59,299 bases of DNA from a virus (IMGVR_UViG_3300046000_006837:1-59299); one strand, 5' to 3'. Positions 151 to 14,294 are shown, counted from the first letter of the stretch. Translations and numbers: made by a program. The notes: generated by a model not told the origin, from the sequence alone.

Positions 151-387
151 ATGTCAGAATCAATGGTAAGAGAATTAGAAAATCGCTCTTTTGAAGTTGG
201 GAGAGTTTTATTTGCAGGTTGCATTTATATGCTTCACACTGCCAATAAAAAAGCGGTTGAAACACTTTTGAATGAAATGTTGGCTACTCCTGATGTTGCC
301 TGTTCTTTATCTAAAGCACGCGAATTAGTTATTCAGGCGTGTTATGATAGATTGATTGAATTAGAAAATGATTCAACCGAAAAGTAA
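151..387 (+). CDS. hypothetical early protein
   Basis: ATG 151 downstream of promoter; the TTG start at 82 in the ORF track abuts the -7 box. Confidence 0.7.
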   Translation: MSESMVRELENRSFEVGRVLFAGCIYMLHTANKKAVETLLNEMLATPDVACSLSKARELVIQACYDRLIELENDSTEK

Positions 388-395
388 ACCAACAA

Positions 396-424
396 GCCCC
401 GCGGTTATATCGCGGGGCACTTTT
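396..424 (+). terminator. hairpin/intrinsic terminator
   Basis: GCCCCGCG/CGCGGGGC stem followed by short T run. Confidence 0.55.
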
Positions 425-448
425 ACCACCACTCAAACAAAAAAAATC

Positions 449-583
449 ATGTCAAGAACTCAAAGAATCCTAATCGACATCAAAAACAATTATGCAATCA
501 TTTTTTGCCTATCTTTCTACCTAGGAATATGGCTAATGATTATTGCAATGGTAGTCGACATCATCATTAAGAACATTTTTTAG
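449..583 (+). CDS. small membrane protein
   Basis: A-rich leader, ATG 449, one hydrophobic helix. Confidence 0.55.
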   Translation: MSRTQRILIDIKNNYAIIFCLSFYLGIWLMIIAMVVDIIIKNIF

Positions 584-673
584 AACGGTCGAACCCCGGC
601 TTAGAACGGTCGGGGTTCATCTTATCATCGGAACGGATTACATTTCATCATATACATTTTAAAATCTATAAAC

Positions 674-952
674 ATGAATAACTTATCATCTCTTTTAAAT
701 AATGATGCAATTAATTTTGGAACAAGTGTAATGAGATTTTTATCCATTGATGCTGTTCCTAATGATTGGACATTCTGGATTAAATTATTATTAGTTATCA
801 TTGTCATTAATAACATTTGGGATCTATGTAGAGAATTGATAAACATTATAAGCAATTTAGGAAATGGAAGTAAGATTGATTTAGGATCTATCTTTAATGA
901 TATTGTTTGGATCTATATTGCATTGGTTTGTCTTAAGTATTGGTTTTTATAG
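674..952 (+). CDS. hypothetical membrane protein
   Basis: ORF with two hydrophobic segments. Confidence 0.6.
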   Translation: MNNLSSLLNNDAINFGTSVMRFLSIDAVPNDWTFWIKLLLVIIVINNIWDLCRELINIISNLGNGSKIDLGSIFNDIVWIYIALVCLKYWFL

Positions 953-1001
953 ACATGGAATATATAATCGGCTGGGGATTGGTTAATAGGTGGTCCCCGC
1001 C

Positions 1002-1045
1002 GAATTTTGCTTGGGTCATTCGATAGAATGACCCGAGCCATTTTT
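1002..1045. repeat. cassette-boundary hairpin H1
   Basis: GAATTTT GCTTGGGTCATTC-gata-GAATGACCCGAGC CATTTTT. Confidence 0.9.
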
Positions 1046-1163
1046 TACAGGCCTAATTTAATAAAAAAGTAACAATTTAATTAGTAAAATTAGGAAATAT
1101 GAAATTACTGTTGTATATTTGTGACGCAGTCGCAATGAAGCGAAGGCGATAAATAAACAGGTT
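1046..1163 (+). promoter_or_regulatory. Type I early promoter block (copy 2)
   Basis: TTAGG 1090-1094, 19-bp spacer, TATATTTG 1114-1121. Confidence 0.85.
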
Positions 1164-1463
1164 ATGCAAAATTTAGAAATGGTGGCTATTGAGTTAAAAG
1201 AAGTATTAGCCGCGAAAGCAATTTTAGAAGCGAGAGAAAAAGCACTACGTTCTGAAATTATCGAAGGTTTACAGTCCCAAAATTTAACCCTATTAAAAGT
1301 AGGTGGGTTTACAGTGTCCATTCGTAAAAACAAAACGTGGGCATATTCAAAATGGGTTAGAACGTTGGAAAAAATGCTTAAGACGCGTAAAACTAACGAG
1401 CAAAACAGCGGAGTAGCTACTTTTGAAGAAACGCCTACATGGCAATTCTTAAGCGCAAAGTAA
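1164..1463 (+). CDS. hypothetical coiled-coil protein, paralog of 2636..2935 and 19156..19509
   Basis: near-identical to 2636..2935. Confidence 0.85.
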   Translation: MQNLEMVAIELKEVLAAKAILEAREKALRSEIIEGLQSQNLTLLKVGGFTVSIRKNKTWAYSKWVRTLEKMLKTRKTNEQNSGVATFEETPTWQFLSAK

Positions 1464-1529
1464 GACAAAAGGGGTGAACGAAAGTTCACCCCGCTTTAAA
1501 AAAATTTTTAACCTTTAAATTTTATATCA

Positions 1530-1766
1530 ATGTTAGGCAAATTAATAATAATTTCAATTTACGTTTATGTTTGTGTTCCACACCCGAACGGCGGTAAAAC
1601 GGAATACATTGAAACGGCGGGTACAAGATCCTGGGAGATGCCGGGAACGTTCACCAAAACGGATTCACTTGTAAAGGAAGCTATCAAGTTCTACGGAATT
1701 GACCTCGAGTATAACACTATTAAAGTAGATGTTAATACACTACGGGTGAAATGCGAGTGCAACTAA
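1530..1766 (+). CDS. hypothetical protein, paralog of 3000..3236
   Basis: shared RSWEMPGTFTKTDSLV and KCECN. Confidence 0.8.
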   Translation: MLGKLIIISIYVYVCVPHPNGGKTEYIETAGTRSWEMPGTFTKTDSLVKEAIKFYGIDLEYNTIKVDVNTLRVKCECN

Positions 1767-1791
1767 GGTAAGCAAGAAACTAGGTCGGAGC

Positions 1792-1834
1792 GAATTTCGC
1801 TCCGGCTATTCTATCGAATAGCCTGAGCAAATTT
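1792..1834. repeat. cassette-boundary hairpin H2
   Basis: GAATTTC GCTCcGGCTATTC-tatc-GAATAGCCtGAGC AAATTT. Confidence 0.9.
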
Positions 1835-1968
1835 TTAGCACCCTAATTTAATAAAAAAGTAACAATTTAATTAGTAAAATTAGGATATATCAAATTACTG
1901 TTGTATATTTGTAGGGCAATAGCAAGTAAGCGAAAGCACTTTAATAATCACTTAAACAAAATCAAGTT
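1835..1968 (+). promoter_or_regulatory. Type I early promoter block (copy 3)
   Basis: repeat of the 1046 block with TATATTTG. Confidence 0.85.
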
Positions 1969-2394
1969 ATGAACAATCTAAAGTCAATGGGAACTATGTT
2001 CAATGCCATGTTTCCAATTTTAAATGTAGCTCAAACGTATGTAAGTGGCATATACATGCCAAAAGAGAACACAGCAAAAGCATTTCTTGAGGCATTTCAA
2101 GAATGTCAAAGCAGATTAGAAGAAGGATCAAAATATGACTTTGAACCTGAATACTACATTAAACAATTAAAAGATTGGGCAAAGAAAACAGAGGAGTCAA
2201 TATTTATGTCCTTACTACCCTACAATCCCGAAGGTTTCTACCCACAGCAAATTGAGGATATGCCTGAAGATCTTTGTTTCTGGGAAGGGCTTTATCAAGC
2301 AGAGCAATGGGATTTAATTACAGAGCACCCATTCTTTGACAGCTGGTTGCAAGAAGCTCAAGAAATTACTCAAGAAATGTGGCAAGAGCATTAA
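1969..2394 (+). CDS. acidic hypothetical protein
   Basis: 141-aa ORF directly after promoter; E/W-rich. Confidence 0.8.
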   Translation: MNNLKSMGTMFNAMFPILNVAQTYVSGIYMPKENTAKAFLEAFQECQSRLEEGSKYDFEPEYYIKQLKDWAKKTEESIFMSLLPYNPEGFYPQQIEDMPEDLCFWEGLYQAEQWDLITEHPFFDSWLQEAQEITQEMWQEH

Positions 2395-2402
2395 ACGAAA
2401 CG

Positions 2403-2432
2403 ACCCCGGCCGGAAACGGTCGGGGTTTCTTT
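2403..2432 (+). terminator. intrinsic terminator
   Basis: ACCCCGGCCG-gaaa-CGGTCGGGGT then TTCTTT. Confidence 0.8.
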
Positions 2433-2471
2433 TGTTAGAACGGAACGGATCCATAACGGAACGGAGCTGAT

Positions 2472-2515
2472 GAATTTTGCTTGGGTCATTCGATAGAATG
2501 ACCCGAGCAATTTTT
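2472..2515. repeat. cassette-boundary hairpin H3
   Basis: same stem as H1. Confidence 0.9.
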
Positions 2516-2635
2516 TCGGGGCCTAATTTAATAAAAAGTAACAATTTAATTAGTAAAATTAGGATATATCAAATTGTTGTTGTATATTTGTAGGGCAATA
2601 GCAAAGAGGCTAAAGCACTAAACAAAAATCAAGTT
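2516..2635 (+). promoter_or_regulatory. Type I early promoter block (copy 4)
   Basis: repeat of the 1046 block. Confidence 0.85.
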
Positions 2636-2935
2636 ATGAGAAATTTAGAAATTGTTGCGGTTGAACTAAAAGAGGTAATGGCTGCAAAATCAATCTTAGA
2701 GGCAAAAGAAAAAATGCTTCGCAATGAAATTATTGAGGGTTTACAGTCTCAAAATTTAACCCTATTAAAAGTAGGTGGGTTCACGGTGTCCATTAGAAAG
2801 AACAAAACATGGGCATATTCAAAATGGGTTCGCACCTTAGAAAAGATGCTCAAAACTAGAAAAGCGAACGAGCAAAACAACGGTACCGCAACCTACGAAG
2901 AAACGCCTACATGGCAATTCTTAAGCGCAAAGTAA
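2636..2935 (+). CDS. hypothetical protein, paralog of 1164..1463
   Basis: sequence near-identity. Confidence 0.85.
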   Translation: MRNLEIVAVELKEVMAAKSILEAKEKMLRNEIIEGLQSQNLTLLKVGGFTVSIRKNKTWAYSKWVRTLEKMLKTRKANEQNNGTATYEETPTWQFLSAK

Positions 2936-2999
2936 AACAAAAGGGGTAGGCGAAAGCCTACCCTACTTTAACAAACTTTTAACCTTCAAATAATAGACC

Positions 3000-3236
3000 A
3001 TGTTAGGCAAATTAGTAATTGTTGTAATTTATGTTTATGTATGTATTCCTAACCCGAACGGTGGCAAAACGGACTACATGGAGAGGGTAGGCGCTAGGTC
3101 CTGGGAGATGCCGGGAACGTTCACCAAAACGGATTCTTTAGTCAATGAAACTATTAAGTACTACGGAATTGACCTTGAACATATCAATATCAACGTAGAC
3201 GTTAACACACTACGAATCAAATGTGAGTGCAACTAA
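3000..3236 (+). CDS. hypothetical protein, paralog of 1530..1766
   Basis: sequence similarity. Confidence 0.8.
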   Translation: MLGKLVIVVIYVYVCIPNPNGGKTDYMERVGARSWEMPGTFTKTDSLVNETIKYYGIDLEHININVDVNTLRIKCECN

Positions 3237-3262
3237 AGTAAAGCAGGGAGCCAGGTCGGAGC

Positions 3263-3305
3263 GAATTTCGCTCCGGCAAGGCTTTAGCCTTGCCTGAGAA
3301 AATTT
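3263..3305. repeat. cassette-boundary hairpin H4
   Basis: GAATTTCG CTCcGGCAAGGC-ttta-GCCTTGCCtGAG AAAATTT. Confidence 0.9.
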
Positions 3306-3440
3306 TTGCAGGGGCGGATCTTAACACTTCTTTAACTAAAATAGCTAAAAATATTAACACTTATTAACTACTACTTATTACTTTTATGCTTATCTTTGTC
3401 ATGCAGTCGCAATGAAGCGAAGGCGTTAAAAAATCAAGTT
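3306..3440 (+). promoter_or_regulatory. Type II early promoter block (copy 1 of 2) with phased TTAAC boxes
   Basis: TTAAC at 3321, 3332, 3354, 3364; TATCTTTG 3391-3398; repeated at 4063-4197. Confidence 0.85.
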
Positions 3441-3668
3441 ATGGAAATCATTTGTTTGTTTAAAAAAGCCGCTCATACTTACACACTATTCTTTAAACCA
3501 GTCTTGATTGGTTATTCTTTTGCGGAAGGTGATTTACGTATGTATGACGATACTGTCGAAGAATTTACAATGGATACTCCTATATTCGATACCTATGAAG
3601 AAGCTGTCAAGTATGCTTATATAAAAACCCACGGAGAGGCTAACTACCTTAGAGAGTTCGAGGAATAA
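3441..3668 (+). CDS. hypothetical protein
   Basis: ATG 3441 after leader. Confidence 0.7.
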   Translation: MEIICLFKKAAHTYTLFFKPVLIGYSFAEGDLRMYDDTVEEFTMDTPIFDTYEEAVKYAYIKTHGEANYLREFEE

Positions 3669-3674
3669 AATACC

Positions 3675-3731
3675 TTAACAAAACATTAACACTAAGGGTA
3701 TTGCATAATACATTCAATACCCTTATATTTG
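3675..3731 (+). promoter_or_regulatory. TTAAC-box / hairpin-embedded promoter
   Basis: TTAAC 3675, 3686; TAAGGGTATTG/CAATACCCTTA inverted repeat; TATATTTG 3724. Confidence 0.85.
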
Positions 3732-3771
3732 TTTTATAATTTTTAATCACTTAAACGTAAAGACAAGCACC

Positions 3772-3960
3772 ATGAAAAGCACAATGTTAGAATCAAACGG
3801 AATTAGAATTGTTTTCTCTTTTGGCGGCAAAGTACGCGTCAACCAGAACGACAAAGAGGTTGAATCGGTAAACAACTTTTCAACATTCAGAAAGTGGGCG
3901 AAGGAGGTTTTATCCGATACTCAATTCAAAGTAGCGAAGGCTCAATTCAACCGTATGTAA
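3772..3960 (+). CDS. hypothetical protein
   Basis: ORF after promoter. Confidence 0.7.
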   Translation: MKSTMLESNGIRIVFSFGGKVRVNQNDKEVESVNNFSTFRKWAKEVLSDTQFKVAKAQFNRM

Positions 3961-4019
3961 TGCGTCCAAAGGATACAACCCACCGAACGGAACGGTTCGG
4001 TGGGAATTCCTATGCTAGC

Positions 4020-4062
4020 GAATTTCGCTCAGGGCAGGGCGGAGCCCTGCCTGAGTAAATTT
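4020..4062. repeat. cassette-boundary hairpin H5
   Basis: GAATTTCG CTCAGgGCAGGGC-gga-GCCCTGCCTGAG TAAATTT. Confidence 0.9.
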
Positions 4063-4197
4063 TTGCAGGGGCGGATCTTAACATTTCTTTAACTAAAATA
4101 GCTAAAAATATTAACACTTATTAACTACTACTTATTACTTTTATTCTTATCTTTGTCATGCAGTCGCAATGAAGCGAAGGCGTTAAATAAACAAGTT
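4063..4197 (+). promoter_or_regulatory. Type II early promoter block (copy 2)
   Basis: near-identical to 3306-3440. Confidence 0.85.
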
Positions 4198-4374
4198 ATG
4201 TACTTATTCATTTTAATTTTCTTCTTAGGTTGTTGGTTCCCTATTAGCTTATACGCTATGATTTTAAATAGCGAATCGGACGGGGATACAGTAAAAGAGA
4301 CGTTATCAAAATTTTTCATCGGTTCGTCTTTATGGATATTATTAATTGTATTTTTTGCAACACTAATAATTTAA
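4198..4374 (+). CDS. small two-helix membrane protein
   Basis: ATG 4198; two hydrophobic segments. Confidence 0.65.
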   Translation: MYLFILIFFLGCWFPISLYAMILNSESDGDTVKETLSKFFIGSSLWILLIVFFATLII

Positions 4375-4427
4375 CAGAACGTTAACACTAAGGGTATTGC
4401 ATAATACATTCAATACCCTTATCTTTG
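4371..4427 (+). promoter_or_regulatory. TTAAC-box / hairpin-embedded promoter
   Basis: TTAAC 4371, 4382; TATCTTTG 4420; copy of 3675 element. Confidence 0.85.
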
Positions 4428-4462
4428 CTTTATAATTTTTTAATCACTTAAACTTAAAAACA

Positions 4463-4693
4463 ATGTTAGCTGAAAAGAAAAATGTATTAAAGACTTTAAA
4501 GTCAGCCATCTTAAAGTCATATTCTGAAAACAAAAATTTAGATTTTACCGATTTTGAGGACGTGGCTTTTGATTTACAAGTAGATATAGAAACGGAAGAG
4601 GACGAACTGGAAACGGAACATAATAGGTTTTATATGGATTATCAAAAAAGCGTAGACGCTGACTATTACGCATTCAGACAAGCGCAAAGATAG
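4463..4693 (+). CDS. acidic hypothetical protein
   Basis: ORF after promoter. Confidence 0.7.
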   Translation: MLAEKKNVLKTLKSAILKSYSENKNLDFTDFEDVAFDLQVDIETEEDELETEHNRFYMDYQKSVDADYYAFRQAQR

Positions 4694-4759
4694 AACGGAA
4701 TTTATAAACAGGGAGGGCTTAAATGCTCTCCCTATCTTAAACATCTTAAAATAATTGTT

Positions 4760-5191
4760 ATGAAGGTTAATGAAGTAAAAGTAAGCTATAAAAAAGGAGT
4801 TTTTGGTAATGTATTAAATTCCTTAAATGCCGTTGATTATTGCAGAAACATTCCGGAATTTGAAAACAGAATGGAGTATCAAGAAGTATTTGCAGCCATA
4901 TATTTAGATAATGCAAATAACATTCTTTGCCATCAAATTATAGGTATTGGTAACATCACTGGGGCAGTGGTAGATCTAAGAATTATTTTCTCCACCGCGC
5001 TTAAGACATTATGCACTAGCCTAGTTCTTTGCCATAACCACCCATCGGGAACTTTAAAAGTATCAAAAGCAGATTTTGACGTAACGAACAAAGTAAAGGA
5101 AGCGGGTAAATTATTTGATATACAGGTATTAGACCACATTATACTAACTAAAAATAGTTATTTGTCCTTTGCGGACGAAGGACACTTATAA
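4760..5191 (+). CDS. radC: RadC-like JAB/MPN domain protein
   Basis: E..., HNHPSG, S..D JAB motif and LDHII. Confidence 0.9.
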   Translation: MKVNEVKVSYKKGVFGNVLNSLNAVDYCRNIPEFENRMEYQEVFAAIYLDNANNILCHQIIGIGNITGAVVDLRIIFSTALKTLCTSLVLCHNHPSGTLKVSKADFDVTNKVKEAGKLFDIQVLDHIILTKNSYLSFADEGHL

Positions 5192-5212
5192 AATACCATT
5201 GTTTTAAGTTTA

Positions 5213-5243
5213 CCCGTCAAATGTAAAAGTTTGGCGGGCTTTT
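5213..5243 (+). terminator. intrinsic terminator
   Basis: CCCGTCAAA/TTTGGCGGG then CTTTT. Confidence 0.7.
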
Positions 5244-5253
5244 CTATGCCAGT

Positions 5254-5296
5254 GAATTTCGCTAAGGCAAGGCTTTAGCCTTGCCTGAGTAAATTT
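5254..5296. repeat. cassette-boundary hairpin H6
   Basis: GAATTTCG CTaAGGCAAGGC-ttta-GCCTTGCCTgAG TAAATTT. Confidence 0.9.
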
Positions 5297-5520
5297 TGGC
5301 GGGATCCCTTTTTAACATTTCCTTAACTATACCAGGGAAAACATTAACACTCCGTTAACTACTAGGTATTGTTTTTATGCTTATCTTTGCAGTGTTATAA
5401 AGAGAGAGGGTAAATAGAAAGGCAAAAAAGTAATTTAAAAAAAGTTTGCCTAAAATTTGGAAATTAGAAAAATAACCCTTATCTTTGCATCAGATTCTTT
5501 ACCACTTAAACAAACAGGTT
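5297..5520 (+). promoter_or_regulatory. Type III tandem-promoter block, about 220 bp (copy 1 of 4)
   Basis: TTAAC 5312, 5323, 5344, 5355; TATCTTTG at 5382 and 5480; repeated at 6625, 8745, 10890. Confidence 0.9.
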
Positions 5521-6225
5521 ATGAAATTAGTCGGTTTTAATTTTATCCATGGCGCAAATGTACATTCAGTTGACTTAAGACTGTCAGGTACAAAAAAATT
5601 AGGATATGCCTTTATAGTGCAAACATATCACTTTGATATGGAACAAGTTATAAATAATAATCTTGTTTTGGATTCGGGAACTTGCTTTAATTGCCCTTTA
5701 AGTTTCAACCAAAATAACGGCAAAACAGGCGGCTGTTATACGCATAAAGGAAATTTAAGAAAGGGCTTAGGCTCTAAATTAAGGTCGTTAAATAAGCAGT
5801 ACAAAGCCGGTAAATTGCTTAATAATTACGATACCGTTTTAAGCGGTTTAAATAAATTCGCAAAGGACGTAAAAATTTCCTTAGTACGGTTTGGGACGTA
5901 TGGCGAAGCGGTTACATTGCCTTTAGACCTATTAGACGGTTTGGCAAAGCTATCAAAGCGTAAAACGGGTTATACGCACCAATGGAACAAACCAGAGTAT
6001 AAAGACTACTCAAAATTTTTAATGGCATCTACTCACAATGTTTTTGAGGTTAACATTGCAAAGGATTATGGATTCAGGACGTTCAATGTAGGACAAATTG
6101 AGAATAGTTTAATGTGTCCATCTTCGCCAACAATCAAAAAAGAAAACAGAACGCCATGTTCGGATTGTGGATTGTGCGCGGGAAATTCAATACAGGCAAA
6201 GGATATTTATATTCCTAAACACTAA
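5521..6225 (+). CDS. Cys-rich putative Fe-S protein (Gp88/radical-SAM-like), paralog of 11116..11823
   Basis: CxxC...CY, RFGTYGE, YTHQW, C-terminal CP...CxxCxxC. Confidence 0.55.
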   Translation: MKLVGFNFIHGANVHSVDLRLSGTKKLGYAFIVQTYHFDMEQVINNNLVLDSGTCFNCPLSFNQNNGKTGGCYTHKGNLRKGLGSKLRSLNKQYKAGKLLNNYDTVLSGLNKFAKDVKISLVRFGTYGEAVTLPLDLLDGLAKLSKRKTGYTHQWNKPEYKDYSKFLMASTHNVFEVNIAKDYGFRTFNVGQIENSLMCPSSPTIKKENRTPCSDCGLCAGNSIQAKDIYIPKH

Positions 6226-6233
6226 AAAAAATA

Positions 6234-6275
6234 TGGGAGAATGTTTGGATATGTCAAATATTCTCCCTATCTTTG
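6234..6275 (+). promoter_or_regulatory. hairpin-embedded promoter
   Basis: GGGAGAATGTTTG/CAAATATTCTCCC; TTTGG-19bp-TATCTTTG; similar at 7353, 7832, 9723. Confidence 0.8.
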
Positions 6276-6306
6276 AAACATATTAATCACTTAAATACTT
6301 AAAAAA

Positions 6307-6516
6307 ATGAATAACAGGCATGTTTGGGAAGGTTGGACGGTTCAAGATTTTATAGATGAATTAGAACCATTCTTTAATTTAGTCATGAGTGGAAGGACAC
6401 ATATCAAGCCATTTAAGGACGACAAAGAACTAAAACAGTATCTTAGAGATAATCAACCATATTATAAGAAACACATTCCAGAGGTCTTTAAGTACTTCAA
6501 AAATAAAATGAAATAA
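6307..6516 (+). CDS. hypothetical protein
   Basis: ORF after promoter. Confidence 0.75.
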   Translation: MNNRHVWEGWTVQDFIDELEPFFNLVMSGRTHIKPFKDDKELKQYLRDNQPYYKKHIPEVFKYFKNKMK

Positions 6517-6538
6517 AGAGATAGTAACTTGTTTTTTG

Positions 6539-6570
6539 CCCCGTTGGATCCAGTGTCCGACGGGGATTTT
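6539..6570 (+). terminator. intrinsic terminator
   Basis: CCCCGTTGGA/TCCGACGGGG then ATTTT; related copy at 8659-8692. Confidence 0.75.
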
Positions 6571-6580
6571 GTGTGCCAGT

Positions 6581-6624
6581 GAATTTCGCTCAGGGCAGGG
6601 CTAAAGCCCTGCCTGAGTAAATTT
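6581..6624. repeat. cassette-boundary hairpin H7
   Basis: GAATTTCG CTCAGgGCAGGGC-taaa-GCCCTGCCTGAG TAAATTT. Confidence 0.9.
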
Positions 6625-6846
6625 GGCGGGATCCCTTTTTAACATTTCCTTAACTATAATAGGGAAAACATTAACACTCCCTTAACTACTTTGTATTGGT
6701 TTTACCCTTATCTTTGTGTTGTTATTAAGAGAGAGGGTAAATAGAAAGGCAAAAAAGTAATTTAAAAAAAGTTTGCCTTAAATTTGGAAATTAGAAAAAT
6801 AACCCTTATCTTTGCATCAGATTCTTAACCACTTTAAATATTTGCT
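6625..6846 (+). promoter_or_regulatory. Type III tandem-promoter block (copy 2)
   Basis: repeat of 5297-5520. Confidence 0.9.
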
Positions 6847-7344
6847 ATGAAGTCCATTAATGAGTTTATTTCCAATTTGTCAGCAAGAAACACGTTTGCA
6901 GCTATTCAATACGAGTCGGCAGCAGATAAGGTTGCTAAAAAATTAACCTATGGTTGGTTGGCAGCCAATGGTATTTCTCGCGAAGAAGTACGTTGTATTA
7001 CTTTCCGTACTTGTCAGTTAGGCAGTACGTACAAAACAAGAGTAGAAAACAGAGAAGGCGAAGGAACGGTTATTAATCCAGGTTGGGCTCGGTCGTTAGA
7101 CAACAAAGGGCACTTATTTGACAATCCTAAGAACGGTAAAAAGTTTCTCCGCGTGTTCTTAGTGCCAGGCAAACAGGTTACTTGGGGCTTTCCGGACGCA
7201 ACAACAGAACGGAACAGATTAGCCTTAGTACAGAGAATGAAGGAAATAGAGCCACAAACGGAATCGGATACGTTTGAAGTAAGAATGATTGAGCTTGATT
7301 GTATCCAGAGTTTAAAGGCAAAAGAAATTTTTCAATTAGCGTAA
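6847..7344 (+). CDS. hypothetical protein
   Basis: 165-aa ORF after promoter block. Confidence 0.8.
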   Translation: MKSINEFISNLSARNTFAAIQYESAADKVAKKLTYGWLAANGISREEVRCITFRTCQLGSTYKTRVENREGEGTVINPGWARSLDNKGHLFDNPKNGKKFLRVFLVPGKQVTWGFPDATTERNRLALVQRMKEIEPQTESDTFEVRMIELDCIQSLKAKEIFQLA

Positions 7345-7424
7345 AAAAAAGTAGGGGAATGTTTGGATATTTTAAATATTCCCCTTATCTTTGCAACATA
7401 TTAATCACTTAAATACTTAAAAAA

Positions 7425-7817
7425 ATGAACAAGGAAGGTTTAGAAATTTCGCTAACAAATGATTTAAGCGAAGAGATTTTTTTCAATGCTTTATGTAATT
7501 CAATGGATTATATGTGTAGCTCGTATGGACTTGATTTAAAGTACAAACAATCGGACTACCTTAAGGCAAAAGCTAAATTGACTAATCCATGTTTAGAAGA
7601 TGTTTTAATGCAGATGCTAAGGGATGGAGCTAAAATTGGATTGAAAGATCTTGAGGGTGGAATGGGTACGGAATACATTACATTAGATACGATACATGAA
7701 AGAGTTAAGAATGTTCCTATTACCGATTTGTTAGATATGATAGATGAAAATGATGATGCCACTACGGGAGAAGTTGTTTTACAGATTGTTTTCCTTAATG
7801 AAATAATGTATGGATAG
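7425..7817 (+). CDS. hypothetical protein
   Basis: ORF after promoter at 7353-7393. Confidence 0.8.
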   Translation: MNKEGLEISLTNDLSEEIFFNALCNSMDYMCSSYGLDLKYKQSDYLKAKAKLTNPCLEDVLMQMLRDGAKIGLKDLEGGMGTEYITLDTIHERVKNVPITDLLDMIDENDDATTGEVVLQIVFLNEIMYG

Positions 7818-7902
7818 GATTTAAAAAAGATGGGAGAATGTTTGGAAATGTGAAATGTTCTCCCTATCTTTGCAACATATTAATCACTTAAATTTTAAAA
7901 CA

Positions 7903-8127
7903 ATGCAGTATCAAATCAAAAGAGAATGTTGGAATGAGAAAACATTTAATGGGTATACAGATAATCCATATTGGAAAATTGAGTTGAAAGGTTTAGGATT
8001 TGTGTTAAATGATGATGGCAGAGTATGGAGTTCTATTGGTATAAAAATGACAGAATTTTATTTAGAGGATATTAGGACAATTATAAAAGAATGTAAACTT
8101 AATATTGATATTGTTTCACCACTTTAA
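7903..8127 (+). CDS. hypothetical protein
   Basis: ATG 7903 after promoter at 7832-7872. Confidence 0.7.
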   Translation: MQYQIKRECWNEKTFNGYTDNPYWKIELKGLGFVLNDDGRVWSSIGIKMTEFYLEDIRTIIKECKLNIDIVSPL

Positions 8128-8138
8128 ATTTTAAAAGA

Positions 8139-8327
8139 ATGTTAGTAAAGAATGATGTTAGATGTAATTGGTGTGACTGGGAAGGATATGAGGATGAATT
8201 AGATTTGATTGTTGATTTATCTGATGATGGTATTTCACATGATGTACATTATCTTAAAGTATGTCCTGAATGTAAGCAAGATGATTATTTGATGGATATT
8301 GATATTGATAACCCCGCGGAAAATTAA
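8139..8327 (+). CDS. small zinc-ribbon protein
   Basis: CxxC...CPxC. Confidence 0.7.
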   Translation: MLVKNDVRCNWCDWEGYEDELDLIVDLSDDGISHDVHYLKVCPECKQDDYLMDIDIDNPAEN

Positions 8328-8331
8328 TAAA

Positions 8332-8628
8332 ATGAGAAGCGAAGTAATTGTAAAAAGACGTGAGGATTTTGGCCATGACTGGATTTTGGTCCTCGAAACA
8401 AAAAAGAATAAAATCCTGAGACGCAAAAGTTTTTACTTAGGTCAAGATGTAAAATTTTGTAGTAGAGTATTGGGAATGTCCCCGCGCGATGTTGTCAATG
8501 AAATTGGTTCTGGAGATTTTACCAAAGATAATAACTTAAAATTGTTAGGAAAATTTATTAGTAAGCGTTTAGAATTATCCTCTAAGTCCATAGATGAATT
8601 AGAAGCGTGGGATTTGTGCTGTCAATAA
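8332..8628 (+). CDS. hypothetical protein
   Basis: ATG 8332 right after previous stop. Confidence 0.7.
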   Translation: MRSEVIVKRREDFGHDWILVLETKKNKILRRKSFYLGQDVKFCSRVLGMSPRDVVNEIGSGDFTKDNNLKLLGKFISKRLELSSKSIDELEAWDLCCQ

Positions 8629-8701
8629 ATTTTAAAGATAACATAACTTGTTTTTTTGCCCCGTCGGATTTAGTATCTGGCGGGGATTTTTTATGGCCAG
8701 T

Positions 8702-8744
8702 GAATTTCGCTCAGGGCAGGGCAAAGCCCTGCCTGAGTAATTTT
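8702..8744. repeat. cassette-boundary hairpin H8
   Basis: same stem as H7, loop aaa. Confidence 0.9.
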
Positions 8745-8971
8745 TGGCGGGATCCCTTTTTAACATTTCCTTAACTATACCAGGGAAAACATTAACACTC
8801 CGTTAACTACTAGGTATTGTTTTTATGCTTATCTTTGCAGTGTTATAAAGAGAGAGGGTAAATAGAAAGGCAAAAAATTAATTTAAAAAAAGTTTGCCTT
8901 AAATTTGGAAATTAGAAAATTAACCCTTATCTTTGCATCAGATTCTTAACCACTTTAAATTTTTAAAGACT
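8745..8971 (+). promoter_or_regulatory. Type III tandem-promoter block (copy 3)
   Basis: repeat of 5297-5520. Confidence 0.9.
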
Positions 8972-9709
8972 ATGATTATTTCAGAAGTAAAAGGCGCAAA
9001 TTTAAGCGCGAAGTATGTAGCTATTAGCTCACAAAAATTGATTAATGACCTTAAGTCTAATGGCTTTGAGATTTCAGACTTTAGAACTAAAAAGAAAGGT
9101 TCTAAAAGTTCCGCGCACCTTATTAGAATGAGGTACAATAAGGAATTAATCTTAAATGGTGAAACCTTATATCCGGAGGTCGTTATCCGTAATTCTTTTG
9201 ACGGAACGGTTGGGTTTGAATGTTCAATGGGAATATTCAGGTTAGTATGTGAAAACGGACTAACTGTAGCTGATTCCAGATTTGAAGCTAAGATTTACAA
9301 AATAAAGCATTTCGGAAAGAAAGCAATGGATATTTCGGAAAAGGTTATTTCGGGTGAAATTGTAGCTAACTTTTTTGAATTGTTACCTAAACTCGAAGAA
9401 TACGTATTGCAGCAAATGTCTGTAAACTTGACCGAAGAGAAGGCTATTGAATTTGCCATGAAGGCTGCTGCTTTGCGTTTTAAGAGAGCCTTTACAGAAA
9501 GTGAAGCCAAATTATTACTCACTTCAGAAAGGTTCGCAGATGATGATAATACGCTTTGGGCTATTCAGAATCGTCTTCAGGAAAAATTGATTAATGGGTT
9601 TGGGCTTGGGGCTATTCGCGGTAGAAAATATTCCTCATTAAAAGATCCTAATAAAATTGCGGTTATCAATGAGAGGTTAGCTAATCTTTCTATGGAGTTC
9701 GCAAATTAA
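8972..9709 (+). CDS. DUF932/DUF945-like phage/plasmid protein
   Basis: H.IR.R, NSFDGT, G.FRLVC.NGL, R..D...LW...NR.QE motifs. Confidence 0.75.
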   Translation: MIISEVKGANLSAKYVAISSQKLINDLKSNGFEISDFRTKKKGSKSSAHLIRMRYNKELILNGETLYPEVVIRNSFDGTVGFECSMGIFRLVCENGLTVADSRFEAKIYKIKHFGKKAMDISEKVISGEIVANFFELLPKLEEYVLQQMSVNLTEEKAIEFAMKAAALRFKRAFTESEAKLLLTSERFADDDNTLWAIQNRLQEKLINGFGLGAIRGRKYSSLKDPNKIAVINERLANLSMEFAN

Positions 9710-9796
9710 TTTAAAAAAATGTGGGGGAATGTTTGGAAATGTAAAATGTTCCCCCTATCTTTGCAGCATATTATTGACCACTTAAAAATTAAAAAC

Positions 9797-10231
9797 ATGA
9801 GAAGGATTAAGGTTAGATTCTCTTTACAGCGTGGAGAAAATTATATGAAATGGAGAGTGATTGATAGAGATGGGGTTGTCACATATTACAATCCATGTGA
9901 CGTTCAATTAATCATGAGAGGTTGCACGTTAAGGAACAATAAGAAATTAGCTACTAAGATTTACAATGGCGAAAGTACGAAGGTAGTGTGCGCCTGGATT
10001 TTATGTGATGAGTTAGAGATTAGACATTCTGATTTTATTAAGGGGTCTGATTTTAAAATCAAGTACAATCCTAAACTTGCCCCCCACTGGATGTTCCTGG
10101 GTGCAGATGTAGATGATAGGTATGTTTCTTACATTGTTTCGGTTGACTTTAAGTTACATATTGATTTGATTCCCGACGGTATGAAATTGGGAGGATACAA
10201 AACTTCGGGAGAAGAGCCCGCAGATTATTAA
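9797..10231 (+). CDS. hypothetical protein
   Basis: ATG 9797 after promoter at 9723-9763. Confidence 0.75.
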   Translation: MRRIKVRFSLQRGENYMKWRVIDRDGVVTYYNPCDVQLIMRGCTLRNNKKLATKIYNGESTKVVCAWILCDELEIRHSDFIKGSDFKIKYNPKLAPHWMFLGADVDDRYVSYIVSVDFKLHIDLIPDGMKLGGYKTSGEEPADY

Positions 10232-10284
10232 CAAAACATTAACGATAGGGGTATTGCATAATATATCCGATGCCCCTATCTTTG
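10228..10284 (+). promoter_or_regulatory. TTAAC-box / hairpin-embedded promoter
   Basis: TTAAC 10228, 10239; TATCTTTG 10277. Confidence 0.85.
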
Positions 10285-10318
10285 CACTATAATTATTCAC
10301 CACTTAATATTTTAAATC

Positions 10319-10801
10319 ATGCACAGTATTCATTTAGTTAGATTAAAAGCAGATTCTCATTCCGATGCTTATTCCATAGTAGAAGATTATCTATTCGATT
10401 GGGGCACAGAGAATAACTGGTTTACTATCCTGGGTTCTCATTGCAAAGAGGATAAATCATTTTCAGAATCTTTTGAAGAAAGATACGTAACTAAAGATGA
10501 ATTGCTTAATAACCCTGATAGATTTAATAGCCTAACAAATATATCTGATTACTACAAAGAGGCATTTGAAAAGGTAGCAAATTTTAAAGGTACTGTTTTA
10601 GTTGAACCTATAGATTGGTTTCTTGCATTAAATCATTGTAAGGAACAACATCAAAGAGCTTTACTTTCCGACCCTGATAAAATTGATATATGGTCGGATA
10701 CTTTCTATGATGGTTCTATAGATGAAAATGGGATTACAGAGCTTTACACAGGTGCAGATAGCCAATTAACTTTTATTGTGTTGGTTGATATGCACTCGTA
10801 A
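10319..10801 (+). CDS. acidic hypothetical protein
   Basis: 160-aa ORF ending VDMHS. Confidence 0.8.
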   Translation: MHSIHLVRLKADSHSDAYSIVEDYLFDWGTENNWFTILGSHCKEDKSFSESFEERYVTKDELLNNPDRFNSLTNISDYYKEAFEKVANFKGTVLVEPIDWFLALNHCKEQHQRALLSDPDKIDIWSDTFYDGSIDENGITELYTGADSQLTFIVLVDMHS

Positions 10802-10807
10802 AAAAAG

Positions 10808-10836
10808 CCCTCCTGGTTAACGCTGGGAGGGTTTTT
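10808..10836 (+). terminator. intrinsic terminator
   Basis: CCCTCCTGG/CTGGGAGGG then TTTTT. Confidence 0.8.
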
Positions 10837-10846
10837 CTATGCCAGT

Positions 10847-10889
10847 GAATTTCGCTCAGAGCAGAGCTCCGCTCTGCCTGAGTAAATTT
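10847..10889. repeat. cassette-boundary hairpin H9
   Basis: GAATTTCG CTCAGaGCAGAGC-tcc-GCTCTGCCTGAG TAAATTT. Confidence 0.9.
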
Positions 10890-11115
10890 TGGCGGGATCC
10901 CTTCTTAACATTTCCTTAACTATACCAGGGAAAACATTAACACTCCGTTAACTACTAGGCATTGTTTTTATGCTTATCTTTGCAGTGTTATAAAGAGAGA
11001 GGGTAAATAGAAAGGCAAAAAATTAATTTAAAAAAAGTTTGCCTTAAATTTGGAAATTAGAAAAATAACCCTTATCTTTGCATCAGATTCTTAACCACTT
11101 AACTTTTAAAAAATT
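10890..11115 (+). promoter_or_regulatory. Type III tandem-promoter block (copy 4)
   Basis: repeat of 5297-5520. Confidence 0.9.
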
Positions 11116-11823
11116 ATGTTAAAGCAAATTAATTTCAGATTAGGCGACGTTATTCACTGTATTGATATCAAGCCTAGTGCTACGCCTAAGCTCGCTCAAA
11201 AAGGCGAAATCATTCTGCAAACTTATCATTTTTCCATTGACCAGATTAATGAGGGTAGCCTAAAAAATGATTCTAAGGTGTGTTTTGATTGTAAGTTCTC
11301 TTATAATGCAAACGGTGGAAAATCAGGCGGTTGCTATACCCATGCGAACGGATCCCTAGCTTGGGGATTGGTTGCAAAATTAAAGGCTTTAAAAAGGCGT
11401 TTAGACAACGGATTAATTCCAGAAGGGACGGACGGTGTAATGGAACAAATTACAAGCGTTACAAAAAAGGTTAAAATATCCTTTGCTCGAATGGGAACGT
11501 ATGGGGAGCCTACCTTATTACCTTTTGAATTGCTAGAACAAATAAGGCCTTTGGTCGGCAAAGTATCGGGCTATACTCACCAATGGCATAAACCAGAGAA
11601 TAAGCAATATGCAAAATACTTAATGGCAAGTACGCATAATATCTTTGACGTAAAATTGGCCGAAGGTTTAGGATTCAGGTCTTACAATGCTAGCCAGGTT
11701 GAAGGTGCTATCCTTTGTCCATCAGCGCCAACCATAGCAAAGGAGAAGCAAGTAAGTTGCGCTAAATGTGGATTGTGTGAAGGTGGAAAGAAAGCTAAGA
11801 ATATTTACAATGTAATCCATTAA
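11116..11823 (+). CDS. Cys-rich putative Fe-S protein, paralog of 5521..6225
   Basis: QTYHF, GGCYTH, RMGTYGE, YTHQW, MASTH shared. Confidence 0.55.
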   Translation: MLKQINFRLGDVIHCIDIKPSATPKLAQKGEIILQTYHFSIDQINEGSLKNDSKVCFDCKFSYNANGGKSGGCYTHANGSLAWGLVAKLKALKRRLDNGLIPEGTDGVMEQITSVTKKVKISFARMGTYGEPTLLPFELLEQIRPLVGKVSGYTHQWHKPENKQYAKYLMASTHNIFDVKLAEGLGFRSYNASQVEGAILCPSAPTIAKEKQVSCAKCGLCEGGKKAKNIYNVIH

Positions 11824-11906
11824 CATAATCTTAACGTGGGGGGATTTGGTTTTCTCAATTACCCCCCCTATATTTGCATCATAATTAATCACTTAAATTG
11901 TAAAAC

Positions 11907-12116
11907 ATGAAAAGTAAATATGATAATATATTAAAGGCATACGAAAAGGTGCTAGGCATGGCAGAAGCTAAGTTACAAAATGCCATTGACAAAAATAAAG
12001 AATGGGATATTGAACATTATAAAACTGATGTTCAAACGATAAAGAATGAAATTGAGTTCACAAATAATCTCAAAAAGAATGAACTTGAAATCAAAAAAAA
12101 TGCTAAAAAAAGTTAA
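11907..12116 (+). CDS. hypothetical coiled-coil protein
   Basis: ORF after promoter 11820-11876. Confidence 0.7.
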   Translation: MKSKYDNILKAYEKVLGMAEAKLQNAIDKNKEWDIEHYKTDVQTIKNEIEFTNNLKKNELEIKKNAKKS

Positions 12117-12213
12117 ATTAAATTAACAAAACATTAACGATAGGGGTATTGCATATTATATCCGATACCCTTATCTTTGCATCATAATTAATCACCACTT
12201 AATATTTAAACTT

Positions 12214-12546
12214 ATGGCAATTTACGGAGATGGAAAGCACAATGAAAACATGGAACACATTGAGCAGCCAATGGAAACTTTTGATTTTTTCCTTGACCAA
12301 AAAATAACTACATGGATGCGTACTAGATTTAGCGTGGAGGCTACATCAAGAGAGGAGGCGATAGAGAAAGCTAAGAAGGAGTATGAGGAGTTATGTTGGG
12401 ATGAATCTTGGGAGGAGATTCCGGACGTTCAAGAAACAATGAGTGTAAGAGATAACGCTGGTTTTAGCACCGAAGAAGTTTACATACATGAATTTCCGAC
12501 AATTAAGATTTGGGAGAATGGCATGAATTCTTTAGACCATTTTTAA
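12214..12546 (+). CDS. hypothetical protein
   Basis: ORF after promoter 12123-12179; VEA.S.EEA.EKA motif. Confidence 0.75.
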   Translation: MAIYGDGKHNENMEHIEQPMETFDFFLDQKITTWMRTRFSVEATSREEAIEKAKKEYEELCWDESWEEIPDVQETMSVRDNAGFSTEEVYIHEFPTIKIWENGMNSLDHF

Positions 12547-12631
12547 CAAAACATTAACGATAGGGGTATTGCATAGTATATCCAATACCCTTATCTTTGC
12601 CACATATTAATCATCACTTAAAAAACAAAAA

Positions 12632-12937
12632 ATGCACGTTTCAGAAAAAAATGTAGCAGGCACTTCTTTCCACGGGGATACCATTAATGCGTCGGTTAAA
12701 GAGCTAACTAAAATTCTTGGTAAACCTACTTATGAGGATAAATCCATAGTAGAGAAAGTAAACTTTGAATGGGTTCTAGAAACTTCAAATGGACACGTTG
12801 TTACTTTGTACACTTGGAAAGAATATAGAAGGTTTAAAAAGAGCGAGGTAGTTAACTTGCACATAGGAGGATTTAAAAAATCAGCTACTTCAATAGCCAA
12901 AGGAGAACTAGAATTTTTGTTGAACTTAAAAAGATAA
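12632..12937 (+). CDS. hypothetical protein
   Basis: ORF after promoter 12543-12599. Confidence 0.75.
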   Translation: MHVSEKNVAGTSFHGDTINASVKELTKILGKPTYEDKSIVEKVNFEWVLETSNGHVVTLYTWKEYRRFKKSEVVNLHIGGFKKSATSIAKGELEFLLNLKR

Positions 12938-12942
12938 TAACC

Positions 12943-13107
12943 ATGATAACTTTAAAGGAAATTTCAAGAAGAGATTTAGTAGAGGCTTTAGAAGTATTAC
13001 TTTCAGATGAGTTTGATTCATCAGAGCTTGTTTACTTGACCGAAGAAGAACTCATTAGGTCTATAATTACCGCAGCTATTTTCTACAAGGAAGCAGCTAA
13101 TGATTAA
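12943..13107 (+). CDS. small acidic protein (54 aa, not in ORF track)
   Basis: MITLKEISRRDLVEALEVLL...EAAND*, translated by hand. Confidence 0.6.
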   Translation: MITLKEISRRDLVEALEVLLSDEFDSSELVYLTEEELIRSIITAAIFYKEAAND

Positions 13108-13117
13108 ATAAAAAGTA

Positions 13118-13242
13118 AGTCAGGTAGCTCAGTTGGGTAGAGCAACCGGTGACAACGGTTCGAGTCCGTTCCATACGAAAGTGTGAGGTGTGTAGGGTAG
13201 CAAGCGGGTGTGACGCAGGTTCGATTCCTGTCCTGACTTCCA
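13118..13242 (+). ncRNA. tRNA-like RNA T1 with encoded CCA and expanded anticodon region
   Basis: AGTCAGG/CCTGACT acceptor, GCTC/GAGC D-stem, GCAGG-TTCGATT-CCTGT T-arm, TCCA end. Confidence 0.8.
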
Positions 13243-13269
13243 AAGGTTAATAGATGTTTAAGTGGTTTG

Positions 13270-13301
13270 GCTCCTGGCAGTAGATGTCAGGAGTTTTTTT
13301 T
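13270..13301 (+). terminator. intrinsic terminator
   Basis: GCTCCTGGCA/TGTCAGGAGT then T run. Confidence 0.85.
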
Positions 13302-13310
13302 GTTGCCAGT

Positions 13311-13353
13311 GAATTTCGCTCAGAGCAGAGCGAAGCTCTGCCTGAGTAAATTT
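13311..13353. repeat. cassette-boundary hairpin H10
   Basis: same stem as H9, loop gaa. Confidence 0.9.
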
Positions 13354-13405
13354 TCCCCCTCCTCCTTTCCAGGATGGCCAGGGATCTATGGGGGAAATCC
13401 AGGCG

Positions 13406-13605
13406 TTAACATTTTTTAACATTTCTTTAAGATCCTTTTAACATTTGAAATTAGGATATTAGATAGATTGGGTGTATCTTTGCAATGTCAATTAGATGAT
13501 GGGGAATAGATGAGATATGGTATGGGTTACATTTTACTACATTTCATTTTAACATGACTTTAACATTTTAGGATTAGGATATTAGATGGAATGTCATTAT
13601 CTTTG
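13406..13605 (+). promoter_or_regulatory. two tandem TTAAC-box promoters
   Basis: TTAAC/TTAAG 13406, 13416, 13427, 13438 with TATCTTTG 13475; TTAAC 13549, 13560 with TATCTTTG 13598. Confidence 0.8.
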
Positions 13606-13640
13606 CGACATATTATTAACCACTTTAAATTTTTAGAATC

Positions 13641-14210
13641 ATGCCAAATTGGTGTTCAAATTGTATCTCATTTGAAGGTAATGAGAAAGCTATGGAAACA
13701 TTTAGAAAAGATGTTGCCAGTATTGAGGACGGTCATTGTATATTTACTGCATTGACTGATTTTAAAGAAGAATGGTGTTATGATGATTGGTGTAATGAGT
13801 TCGGCACTAAATGGAGTGTAACGATGGACGATGACATTAGGAGTAACGTGAAAGAATGTGATTACTTTAATTGTGAAACGGCTTGGAGTCCATGTACGGA
13901 ATTTGTTAAGAAGGTATGTAAGAAGTACGGAATAGAAGGACGGATTGAATATACAGAAGGGGGGTGTGACATTGCAGGTATTGTTGAGATTGATGTAAAT
14001 GGTGATGAAGTAAGTAGAAGAGATATGACTTATAATGAATATCAGTATGAAGAAGTACCTGAGAGTTTCTTCTATGATTTTATTATGAATGTTGAAGATG
14101 GATTGATTGAAAGTGAGGAGCAGATAAGAGAAGAATATTCATTTGTTACTGAGGAGGATATGTTGGAATTGATTGTATTGTTTAATGAGAATGTCCCCTC
14201 GAAAAATTAA
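13641..14210 (+). CDS. YubB/Api92-like ferredoxin-fold protein
   Basis: MPNWC.N, W....FGTKW, TAWSP motifs. Confidence 0.6.
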   Translation: MPNWCSNCISFEGNEKAMETFRKDVASIEDGHCIFTALTDFKEEWCYDDWCNEFGTKWSVTMDDDIRSNVKECDYFNCETAWSPCTEFVKKVCKKYGIEGRIEYTEGGCDIAGIVEIDVNGDEVSRRDMTYNEYQYEEVPESFFYDFIMNVEDGLIESEEQIREEYSFVTEEDMLELIVLFNENVPSKN

Positions 14211-14294
14211 CATAATATTAACATGAGGGGATTTGGTTTTCTCAATTATCCCCCCTATATTTGCACTATATTCTTTACCACTAAACTAAAAAAA

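Follow-up and report, generated by a model that had tools for sequence, protein, structure and literature searches.

A conserved imperfect hairpin, here called H, forms the boundary of early gene units in IMGVR_UViG_3300046000_006837:1-59299, a virus record of 59,299 bp (this whole stretch is called the window below). Ten copies are present in the window and 57 more were extracted from five related records (G001 to G005). The anatomy of H is real and well beyond chance, and the picture of an early region made of cassettes is right. The H-bearing unit is a variant of the promoter early stem-loop (PeSL) design known from T4-type phages, with an extra conserved sense-strand hairpin, and is not a new gene-shuffling machine. 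Our leading, still tentative, reading is that H is the constant piece of a PeSL-like terminator-hairpin-promoter unit and acts as its own stop or insulator. In favor of this, H is the sole element found at every boundary (67 copies, six records).

A preliminary description of the window had placed hairpins at ten positions in its early region and these were recovered. The pattern GAATTTYGCT-N20-30-GAGNNAWTTT gave 10 matches, all on the plus strand, and none in 100 shuffles. A covariance model was built from 41 sequences, comprising the 10 window copies and 31 unique copies from relatives. A search of the window with this model returned the same ten copies only (E ≤ 2.4e-08, 998 to 13,359, plus strand), plus weak reverse-strand echoes. 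H is restricted to positions 1 to 13.4 kb of the 59.3-kb window. The DNA fold of each window copy ranged from -12 to -15.2 kcal/mol (z -4.4 to -9.3). The ten copies are as follows.

1002 to 1046, plus strand: copy 1, class A, with a T.G wobble, loop GATA and a tail of six T
1792 to 1836, plus strand: copy 2, with a C/T mismatch and loop TATC, 26 nt past a stop codon and without an upstream terminator
2472 to 2516, plus strand: copy 3, with arms, stem and loop as in copy 1; terminator at 2402 to 2427 upstream
3263 to 3307, plus strand: copy 4, with a C/T mismatch and loop TTTA, 27 nt past a stop codon
4020 to 4064, plus strand: copy 5, with a bulged G and loop GGA; upstream hairpin at 3979 to 4004 with a poor T tail
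5254 to 5297, plus strand: copy 6, with an A/G mismatch and loop TTTA; terminator at 5213 to 5238 upstream
6581 to 6624, plus strand: copy 7, with a bulged G and loop TAAA; terminator at 6539 to 6565 upstream
8702 to 8745, plus strand: copy 8, with a bulged G and loop AAA; terminator at 8659 to 8685 upstream
10847 to 10890, plus strand: copy 9, with a bulged A and loop TCC; terminator at 10808 to 10831 upstream
13311 to 13354, plus strand: copy 10, the last of the block, with a bulged A and loop GAA; terminator at 13269 to 13295 upstream and a different block downstream

The outer arms, GAATTTYGCT and GAGNAAWTTT, are near-invariant, as had been described, and the arm sequence of all copies is GAATTTYGCT ... 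GAGTAAATTT. They stay near-invariant across promoter classes whose flanks cannot be aligned. The upper stem covaries, again as described. In an alignment of 62 distinct rows, fitted to the model and with a few reverse-strand echoes among them, 88.6% of cells were paired compared to 81.1% in shuffles. The covariation score was 0.221 compared to 0.116 in shuffles, none of 500 shuffles scored as high, and six pairs were changed on both sides. No family matching H was found in Rfam.

The five relatives are multi-copy records obtained by a pattern scan of viral contigs. A looser pattern gave two more records, which end inside the block. The model search of the five relatives placed the H copies of every record in one block and on one strand.

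G001, 74,090 to 89,112: H block, 16 copies extracted
G002, 9,428 to 23,322: H block, 14 copies extracted
G004, 14,409 to 30,123: H block, 14 copies extracted
G005, 37,948 to 49,677: H block, 9 copies extracted
G003, 85,995 to 92,599: H block, 4 copies extracted

With weaker model hits left out, the window and its relatives hold 67 copies, 50 of them unique. All 67 are on the gene strand, in one block of about 15 kb per record. A metagenome harvest, defined by a regular expression and containing some chance hits, added 163 copies in 104 stretches. Fifty-seven of these were new sequences, giving 107 unique sequences in all.

Every copy in the window precedes a promoter block, which agrees with the preliminary description. 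A TAnnTTTG box was found 111 to 164 nt downstream in all ten cases. TAnnTTTG is the -7 consensus of Bacteroidetes promoters (PMC2483708). The octamer TATCTTTG occurred 30 times in the window compared to 5.2 expected, 27 times on the plus strand, and mostly just 5' of genes. Since this octamer fits the Bacteroidetes consensus, the promoter boxes suggest a host within the Bacteroidota. Three classes of promoter block were distinguished in the window.

1047 to 1121, plus strand: class A promoter block, with TATATTTG at 1114; also after copies 2 and 3 (boxes at 1904 and 2583)
3308 to 3398, plus strand: class B promoter block, with TTAACA/TTAACTA boxes at 3321, 3332, 3354 and 3364 and TATCTTTG at 3391; also after copy 5 (box at 4148)
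5298 to 5487, plus strand: class C promoter block, with four TTAAC boxes and TATCTTTG at 5382 and 5480; near-identical after copies 7, 8 and 9

Measured from the start of H in the six records, the first TAnnTTTG lay at 111 to 112 nt in class A, at 125 to 128 nt (a few at 137) in classes B and C, and at 158 to 164 nt after the last copy. The gap from the end of H to the -7 box was 65 to 85 nt. Metagenome copies with enough flank (N = 152), in which distances were counted one higher than in the six records, gave 50 at 112 to 113 nt and 73 at 127 to 130 nt. These two spacings account for 123 of the 152; 16 had no box, chance hits included. A by-eye search found no convincing -33 TTTG at the right distance, promoter upstream of H, minus-strand promoter or terminator, or IHF-like site. 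Literature on the early promoters of Bacteroidota phages was also searched and only the host consensus turned up.

Other structures were seen around these blocks. The two TATCTTTG boxes of the class C units are 98 nt apart with a small hairpin, GGCAAA...TTTGCC, and a weak T-rich tail between them (5390 to 5480; also after copies 7, 8 and 9). This stretch may be a short leader or a small RNA. An outer helix, GCCAG/TTGGC, around the class C copies of the window was dropped as a candidate since it is absent from G001, G002 and G005. Compact composites of a GC-clamped hairpin and an immediately following -7 box (TATCTTTG or TATATTTG) were found at 6235 to 6275, 7353 to 7393, 15035 to 15073 and 15332 to 15370. 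A TTAACA-N5-TTAACA double box stands 38 nt before the -7 box at most genes between 13.4 and 16 kb. The composites have the look of a second promoter class, one that depends on an activator and carries its own terminator.

Upstream of H the arrangement is less uniform. Most copies had been described as lying just after a terminator, and a strict test for a hairpin plus T run was passed at six of the ten in the window. The statement does not extend to the others, as the upstream hairpin has a poor T tail at 4020, is weak at 1002 and is missing at 1792 and 3263. In the six records a strict GC hairpin plus T run preceded H at 36 of 67 copies, and at about a dozen further copies the upstream hairpin was there but its tail had decayed. 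Behind gene family f5, copies lie 26 to 28 nt past the stop codon with nothing between, in all five records where this was seen. An alternative hairpin, CGGAGCG-AATTT-CGCTCCG, was noted behind f5 at 1786 to 1804 and 3257 to 3275. It uses the 5' arm of H and competes with the lower stem of H. The window, G004 and G005 retain it, and G001 and G002 do so in part. At copies that have the upstream hairpin, conservation covers its T-rich tail and the bases between this tail and H, with a spacing of about 15 to 16 nt. One and the same hairpin plus tail stands behind different genes (f46, f50, f60, f13 and f18), so the mobile unit is hairpin, tail, H and promoter together.

In the mechanism proposed here, a control unit of about 250 bp would open every early transcription unit. 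It would have, in this order, a GC hairpin and its T-rich tail, H, and the promoter block. Polymerase coming from the upstream gene would transcribe the 13-bp GC-rich stem of H, which would be closed by G.U and could be extended by pairing of 5' UUU with AAA. A run of 3 to 7 U would come next, and the polymerase would be released before running over the next strong promoter. Repeated 10 to 16 times per genome, the unit would provide portable homology. General recombination and replication template switching would then duplicate, swap and delete cassettes and flip loops, as at T4-type PeSLs. We infer that H is transcribed, that polymerase stops there and that the arms are conserved for this role.

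The T run after H is consistent with such a stop. It was at least four long in 62 of 67 copies and at least five in 50 of 67, and ended in G in 55 of 67. A consensus terminator scan flagged three of the ten window copies as terminator-like. H resembles intrinsic and tandem terminators in its GC-rich stem, short loop, T run, position at the end of transcription units and co-orientation with the genes. It differs from intrinsic terminators in the 2 to 3 A before the T run, in its conserved arms and in a distance that is tied to the downstream promoter and not to the upstream gene.

Several results weigh against a stop. The U run is separated from the H stem by these 2 to 3 A, and only three T follow 5 of the 67 copies. 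A classical terminator score, from an uncalibrated formula, was positive in 2 of 67 H copies, or 14 of 67 with the AAA/UUU extension. By the same score two of five upstream terminators were positive, and their tails scored far higher than those of H. In the RNA fold of the window class C copies a longer helix takes up the T run in full. Loops of three purine bases with a C-G closing pair resemble stable DNA mini-hairpins, as described for phage N4 (PMC4496689), more than they resemble RNA terminator loops. In G001, G002 and G004 the first H is directly preceded by about 800 nt of non-coding, AT-rich, iteron-like repeats with no gene. A sequence-specific reader is also indicated, because the arms are fixed across unalignable flanks and a plain terminator needs no fixed sequence. 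As the terminator evidence cuts both ways, a stop or insulator is held only tentatively and a protein-read element is its main rival.

The repeat tract to the left of the first H (L113 plus L014, about 73,300 to 74,090 in G001; also in G002 and G004) is made of TAGATG/ATAGAT units followed by ACGGA repeats. The window starts right of it. The tract is possibly an origin of replication or one end of the genome.

The preliminary description had the loop varying freely and a helix defect at the same place in every copy. Neither holds. The loops form a small set in reverse-complement pairs (AAA/TTT, GGA/TCC, TTTA/TAAA and GATA/TATC), plus GAA, and their orientation is not fixed (5 GGA and 4 TCC, 11 AAA and 3 TTT). 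The defects of the window copies spread over three neighboring positions. A T.G wobble (copies at 1002 and 2472) or an A/G mismatch (5254) is at stem pair 4, a C/T mismatch is at stem pair 5 (1792 and 3263), and a 5'-arm bulge is two to three bases further in than pair 5 (4020, 6581, 8702, 10847 and 13311). Perfect helices were found in 9 of the 31 unique copies from relatives and in 38 of the 107 unique copies of the larger set.

The defects that do occur are of particular kinds. The non-Watson-Crick positions of the 50 unique copies were G.T (33), T.G (5), A/G (25), G/A (14), C/T (6), A/A (5) and A.C (1), with 44 purine-purine mismatches. All eight bulges in these copies were on the 5' arm. 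Wobbles numbered 80 compared to five A.C or C.A in the 107 unique copies. At the stem base most copies have a G.T pair, four have G-C and thirteen have A-T. The H stem is 12 to 13 bp and the RNA stems of classes B and C ranged from -17 to -28 kcal/mol. In the class A copies of relatives a tandem G.A/A.G takes the place of the upper stem, with a short stem and a triloop after it, and the helix is interrupted and only 5 to 9 bp. The pattern suits folding of H on the plus (sense) strand, as RNA or as single-stranded DNA. A symmetrical cruciform is disfavored as the working form because the mismatches do not suit the complementary strand.

H changes by concerted evolution and loop inversion, and events at the DNA level act on it. 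G001 and G002 differ in 210 of 13,005 aligned columns (1.6%). Their nine compared H copies differ in 8 of 423 bases, and five of these eight are among the 27 loop bases (AAA to TTT, TTT to TCC). Stem variants are common to neighboring copies within a genome and not to copies at the same place across genomes. The CAGAG stem occurs only in the window copies at 10847 and 13311, and CGGG/CCCG in two adjacent copies in G001 and G002. Of the seven class B and C copies in the window five have the 5' bulge; no class B or C copy of G001 or G002 has it. Template switching in replication can produce compensatory changes and loop inversions in single events (PMC8794818). Part of the covariation is therefore possibly mutational and not selected. 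H is like the inverted repeats described there in its loop inversions and in multi-base compensatory changes that arise as single events. Template switching is a mutation process and explains how H changes, not why the arms are kept. The loop flips offer a clean example, from nature, of template-switch mutation within a very short time.

Families of open reading frames (ORFs) were ordered along the six blocks of the window and its relatives. The proposed shuffling of hairpin-bounded cassettes was borne out in that units were duplicated, swapped and lost among relatives; breakpoints also fell at promoters without a hairpin. The window has one extra [H-f4-f5] unit compared to its relatives. G001 and G002 have the order H-f8-H-f9-f10-H while G004 has H-f9-f10-H-f8-f10-H, and the number of class A units differs among the records. 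An old duplication joins 1002 to 1836 with 2472 to 3307, with homology from the first base of H to inside the next H and different promoter classes beyond. Overall identity between the window's two f4-f5 units is 87%, their genes have diverged by about 15%, and their H copies are 100% identical.

Other moves had ends elsewhere. Segments 9744 to 10308 and 10275 to 11914 are in opposite order in all five relatives, with junctions at -7 boxes, and the join of 11856 to 9744 was also present in contigs of two RNA-labeled runs. Two DNA runs contained a variant without 8334 to 9744 (a gene, terminator, H, promoter and the next gene) and with 28 other letters instead. The ends of this deletion are a gene start and a point just before a -7 box. 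Contigs from two RNA-labeled and two DNA runs alike break at repeated blocks (e.g., 5470/5478, 6805 and 11071). Because many moves end at hairpin-less promoter boxes, exchange occurs at any repeated control sequence, as in PeSLs. Recombination between the units is general and not attC-like. Long DNA matches between records were confined to the early and middle region.

Of 20 early proteins scanned, three had a Pfam family above cut-off, and known hairpin binders were not among them. The early cassettes include RadC-like JAB domain, DUF932 and Api92-like DUF1281_C proteins (4760 to 5191, 8972 to 9709 and 13641 to 14210). RadC-like, DUF932 and Api92-like families are common in gene sets of the anti-defense kind or of plasmid leading regions, so the turnover of counter-defense genes is probably aided by the units.

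PeSLs combine a strong early promoter with a stem-loop terminator, flank orphan genes and recombine together, with crossovers mapped in the stem-loop's loop or next to it (PMC2839356; also PMC4122927 for all except the crossovers). The unit described here is likewise a repeated intergenic stem-loop with a strong host-type early promoter. It flanks small, mostly orphan genes in a variable region, relatives differ by indels and swaps at the units, and, just as PeSLs are not known to involve a dedicated recombinase (PMC2839356; PMC4122927), none was found in the five records searched here. It differs from a PeSL in that the promoter is of the Bacteroidota -7 type and each unit has two hairpins. 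The conserved H is neither inside nor next to the promoter box but 90 to 110 nt upstream, and has sequence-fixed arms and a fold on the sense strand only. The compact hairpin-then-box composites of the window (6235, 7353 and 15035) are nearer to the PeSL layout than H is. The phage is also not a close relative of T4, as the best match of its RNA ligase to any deposited phage was below 30% identity. A search of the literature on conserved stem-loops in phage early regions found nothing closer than PeSLs. The PeSL idea of portable stop-plus-start units for trading small early genes, known from T4-type coliphages, thereby extends to a freshwater myovirus that is uncultured and has Bacteroidota-style promoters. 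Its unit has three parts, and the hairpin in the middle is better conserved than the flanking genes. If H is indeed a compact, context-independent insulator it would be a useful genetic-tool part in Bacteroidota. If a protein reads it, H would represent a new layer of early phage control.

That protein-read alternative is doubtful, and has H as a site for a phage or host protein which recognizes its shape and arm sequence, as an extruded sense-strand DNA hairpin or as RNA, and which switches, insulates or boosts each early promoter. It would explain why the arms are near-invariant while the upper stem and loop change, why two promoter spacings are fixed despite diverged spacer sequence, and why one H stands before every early unit, including the first with no gene directly upstream. 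The poor terminator tail fits as well, as do the C-G-closed three-base purine loops and AT-rich flanks, which are as in the supercoil-extruded N4 hairpins of PMC4496689. No candidate reader was found among the 20 early proteins scanned, three of which had a Pfam family above cut-off. The loops flip freely and so are not read by a protein, and the fixed spacing could also come from copying of the block as a unit. The antisense strand of class A relatives folds poorly, the tandem G.A becoming C/T, which speaks against a true cruciform. It is unlikely that H is instead an upstream control element of Bacteroidota-type promoters. In that case a fixed-arm sense-strand hairpin would be extruded by transcription-driven supercoiling and read by a putative phage or host factor, and would license or insulate promoters from a set distance. 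GNA-like triloops and AT-rich flanks would aid the extrusion, and H would be N4-like in principle but would serve the host polymerase. It is very improbable that H is a true N4-like hairpin promoter, used by a virion-borne phage RNA polymerase. H shares with the N4 promoters (PMC4496689) a small DNA hairpin rich in GC, a three-base purine loop (GGA, GAA), conserved flanks and a mixture of conserved and variable stem positions. Its copies are co-oriented with the genes, cluster in the region expressed first and are confined to one block that adjoins the non-coding repeat tract, possibly a genome end. H differs in that its loop flips strands (GGA 5 compared to TCC 4), whereas N4 reads specific template-strand loop bases, in a stem of 13 bp and not 5 to 7, and in 10 to 16 copies and not 3 (same source). 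Host-type promoter boxes follow every H. A virion polymerase gene was not seen in the incomplete genomes examined here, and the T7-like polymerase family PF00940 matched none of five records in a search without any positive-control match. G001 is a myovirus whose largest ORF (1493 aa) encodes the tape-measure protein, with no giant polymerase ORF.

H could also be a neutral or selfish palindrome that is carried along with the promoter block and stays paired through replication template switching and gene conversion, although we consider it improbable that H has no function. Compensatory changes with loop inversion in one event (PMC8794818), the reverse-complement loop pairs, the 5 of 27 loop bases that differ against a 1.6% background and the variants common to neighboring copies all agree with such an origin. 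Strict orientation, one-strand mismatches and invariant arms in unalignable contexts are not expected from drift, and two units with a gene divergence of about 15% have 100% identical H. No more probable is an RNase III-type site for the processing of double-stranded RNA, at which read-through RNA would be cut and a protective 3' hairpin left. Such sites lie between the early genes of T7, and H may resemble them. With the AAUUU/AAAUU extension the helix is 18 to 23 bp with a one-sided bulge or small internal loop, the G.U pairs are conserved on the sense strand and the lower-stem sequence is conserved. Little RNA should contain H, because a terminator precedes it at 36 of 67 copies and a promoter follows all of them, and the class A relatives have only the 5 to 9 bp interrupted helix.

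The preliminary description had itself proposed a folded-DNA site like integron attC or the hairpins of HUH transposases and repetitive extragenic palindromes (REP), read through extrahelical bases by a dedicated cassette recombinase. We regard this as highly unlikely. Relatives do differ in how many H-bounded cassettes they have and in how these are ordered, both ends of one old duplication lie at H, and the fold is single-strand-specific with bulges on one arm. The defects are missing in about a third of the unique copies (38 of 107), each cassette has its own promoter, and other rearrangements end at hairpin-less promoter boxes. PF00589 (tyrosine recombinase) and PF01797 (Y1 transposase) had no match in the window, in which a cognate recombinase had already been reported as absent. 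Neither matched any of five records, these being the window and four relatives (39 to 56% complete each by CheckV), while the positive controls matched in 14 of 14 genomes for PF00589 and in six genomes for PF01797; at this completeness, absence of a recombinase from the clade is not proven. A pattern scan of bacterial genomes gave, among the matches listed, at least 120 stretches from unrelated taxa, 118 with a single match and two with a double match. These appear chance-like and include no multi-copy family. The attC core sites are RYYYAAC ... GTTRRRY, and a by-eye comparison with this consensus found none in the H arms. H is like attC in being an imperfect palindrome between gene cassettes with conserved outer arms, a variable center and a one-strand fold. 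It is unlike attC in having no attC cores, no integrase found, extrahelical bases that are not constant, and cassettes with their own promoters and terminators. A place among the REP/RAYT or IS200/IS605 hairpins is not indicated either, as neither a Y1 (HUH) transposase in the five records nor a multi-copy host family among the bacterial matches listed was found.

The phage is apparently lytic and contractile-tailed, and comes uncultured from freshwater lakes. The window is a whole IMG/VR virus record, linear and 39% complete (CheckV). Its genes are on the plus strand up to about 44 kb and on the minus strand beyond. The minus-strand part encodes tail-fiber-like proteins and the plus-strand part includes RNA ligase, thymidylate-synthase-like and sugar-epimerase genes. 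Positions 1 to 14,000 had no match to deposited phages (megablast). Fourteen lake-water metagenome runs contain the window at 0.87 or more of sampled words, and the window may itself derive from one of these runs. Among the products encoded by the relative G001, a record of 98.6 kb, are terminase, portal, major head, tail sheath, DNA polymerase and ribonucleotide reductase. This content, with the tail sheath and tape-measure proteins, identifies the clade as a lytic-looking myovirus. The hairpin block sits at a different place in each record, so the records cover different parts of the genome.

A 769-aa protein with glucosyltransferase-like and 2OG-Fe(II) oxygenase parts is encoded in G001 (12478 to 14787, L118). 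In the window a nucleotide-sugar epimerase and a thymidylate-synthase-like gene are located at 17147 to 18154 and 41024 to 41887. Together these genes hint at hypermodified DNA. Two tRNA genes were predicted by ARAGORN in the window, both unusual and on the plus strand. One (16880 to 16954) is of unknown type with a four-base anticodon, ggaa, and the other (31872 to 31950) is a tRNA-Phe with anticodon aaa. A further tRNA-like match to Rfam (43.6 bits over 122 nt) at 13118 to 13239 on the plus strand was not called by ARAGORN. It is placed between the last early ORF and the terminator that precedes the tenth hairpin. Its acceptor, D and T arms are normal, the anticodon loop is GUGACAA, and there are about 50 extra nt between the anticodon and T arms.

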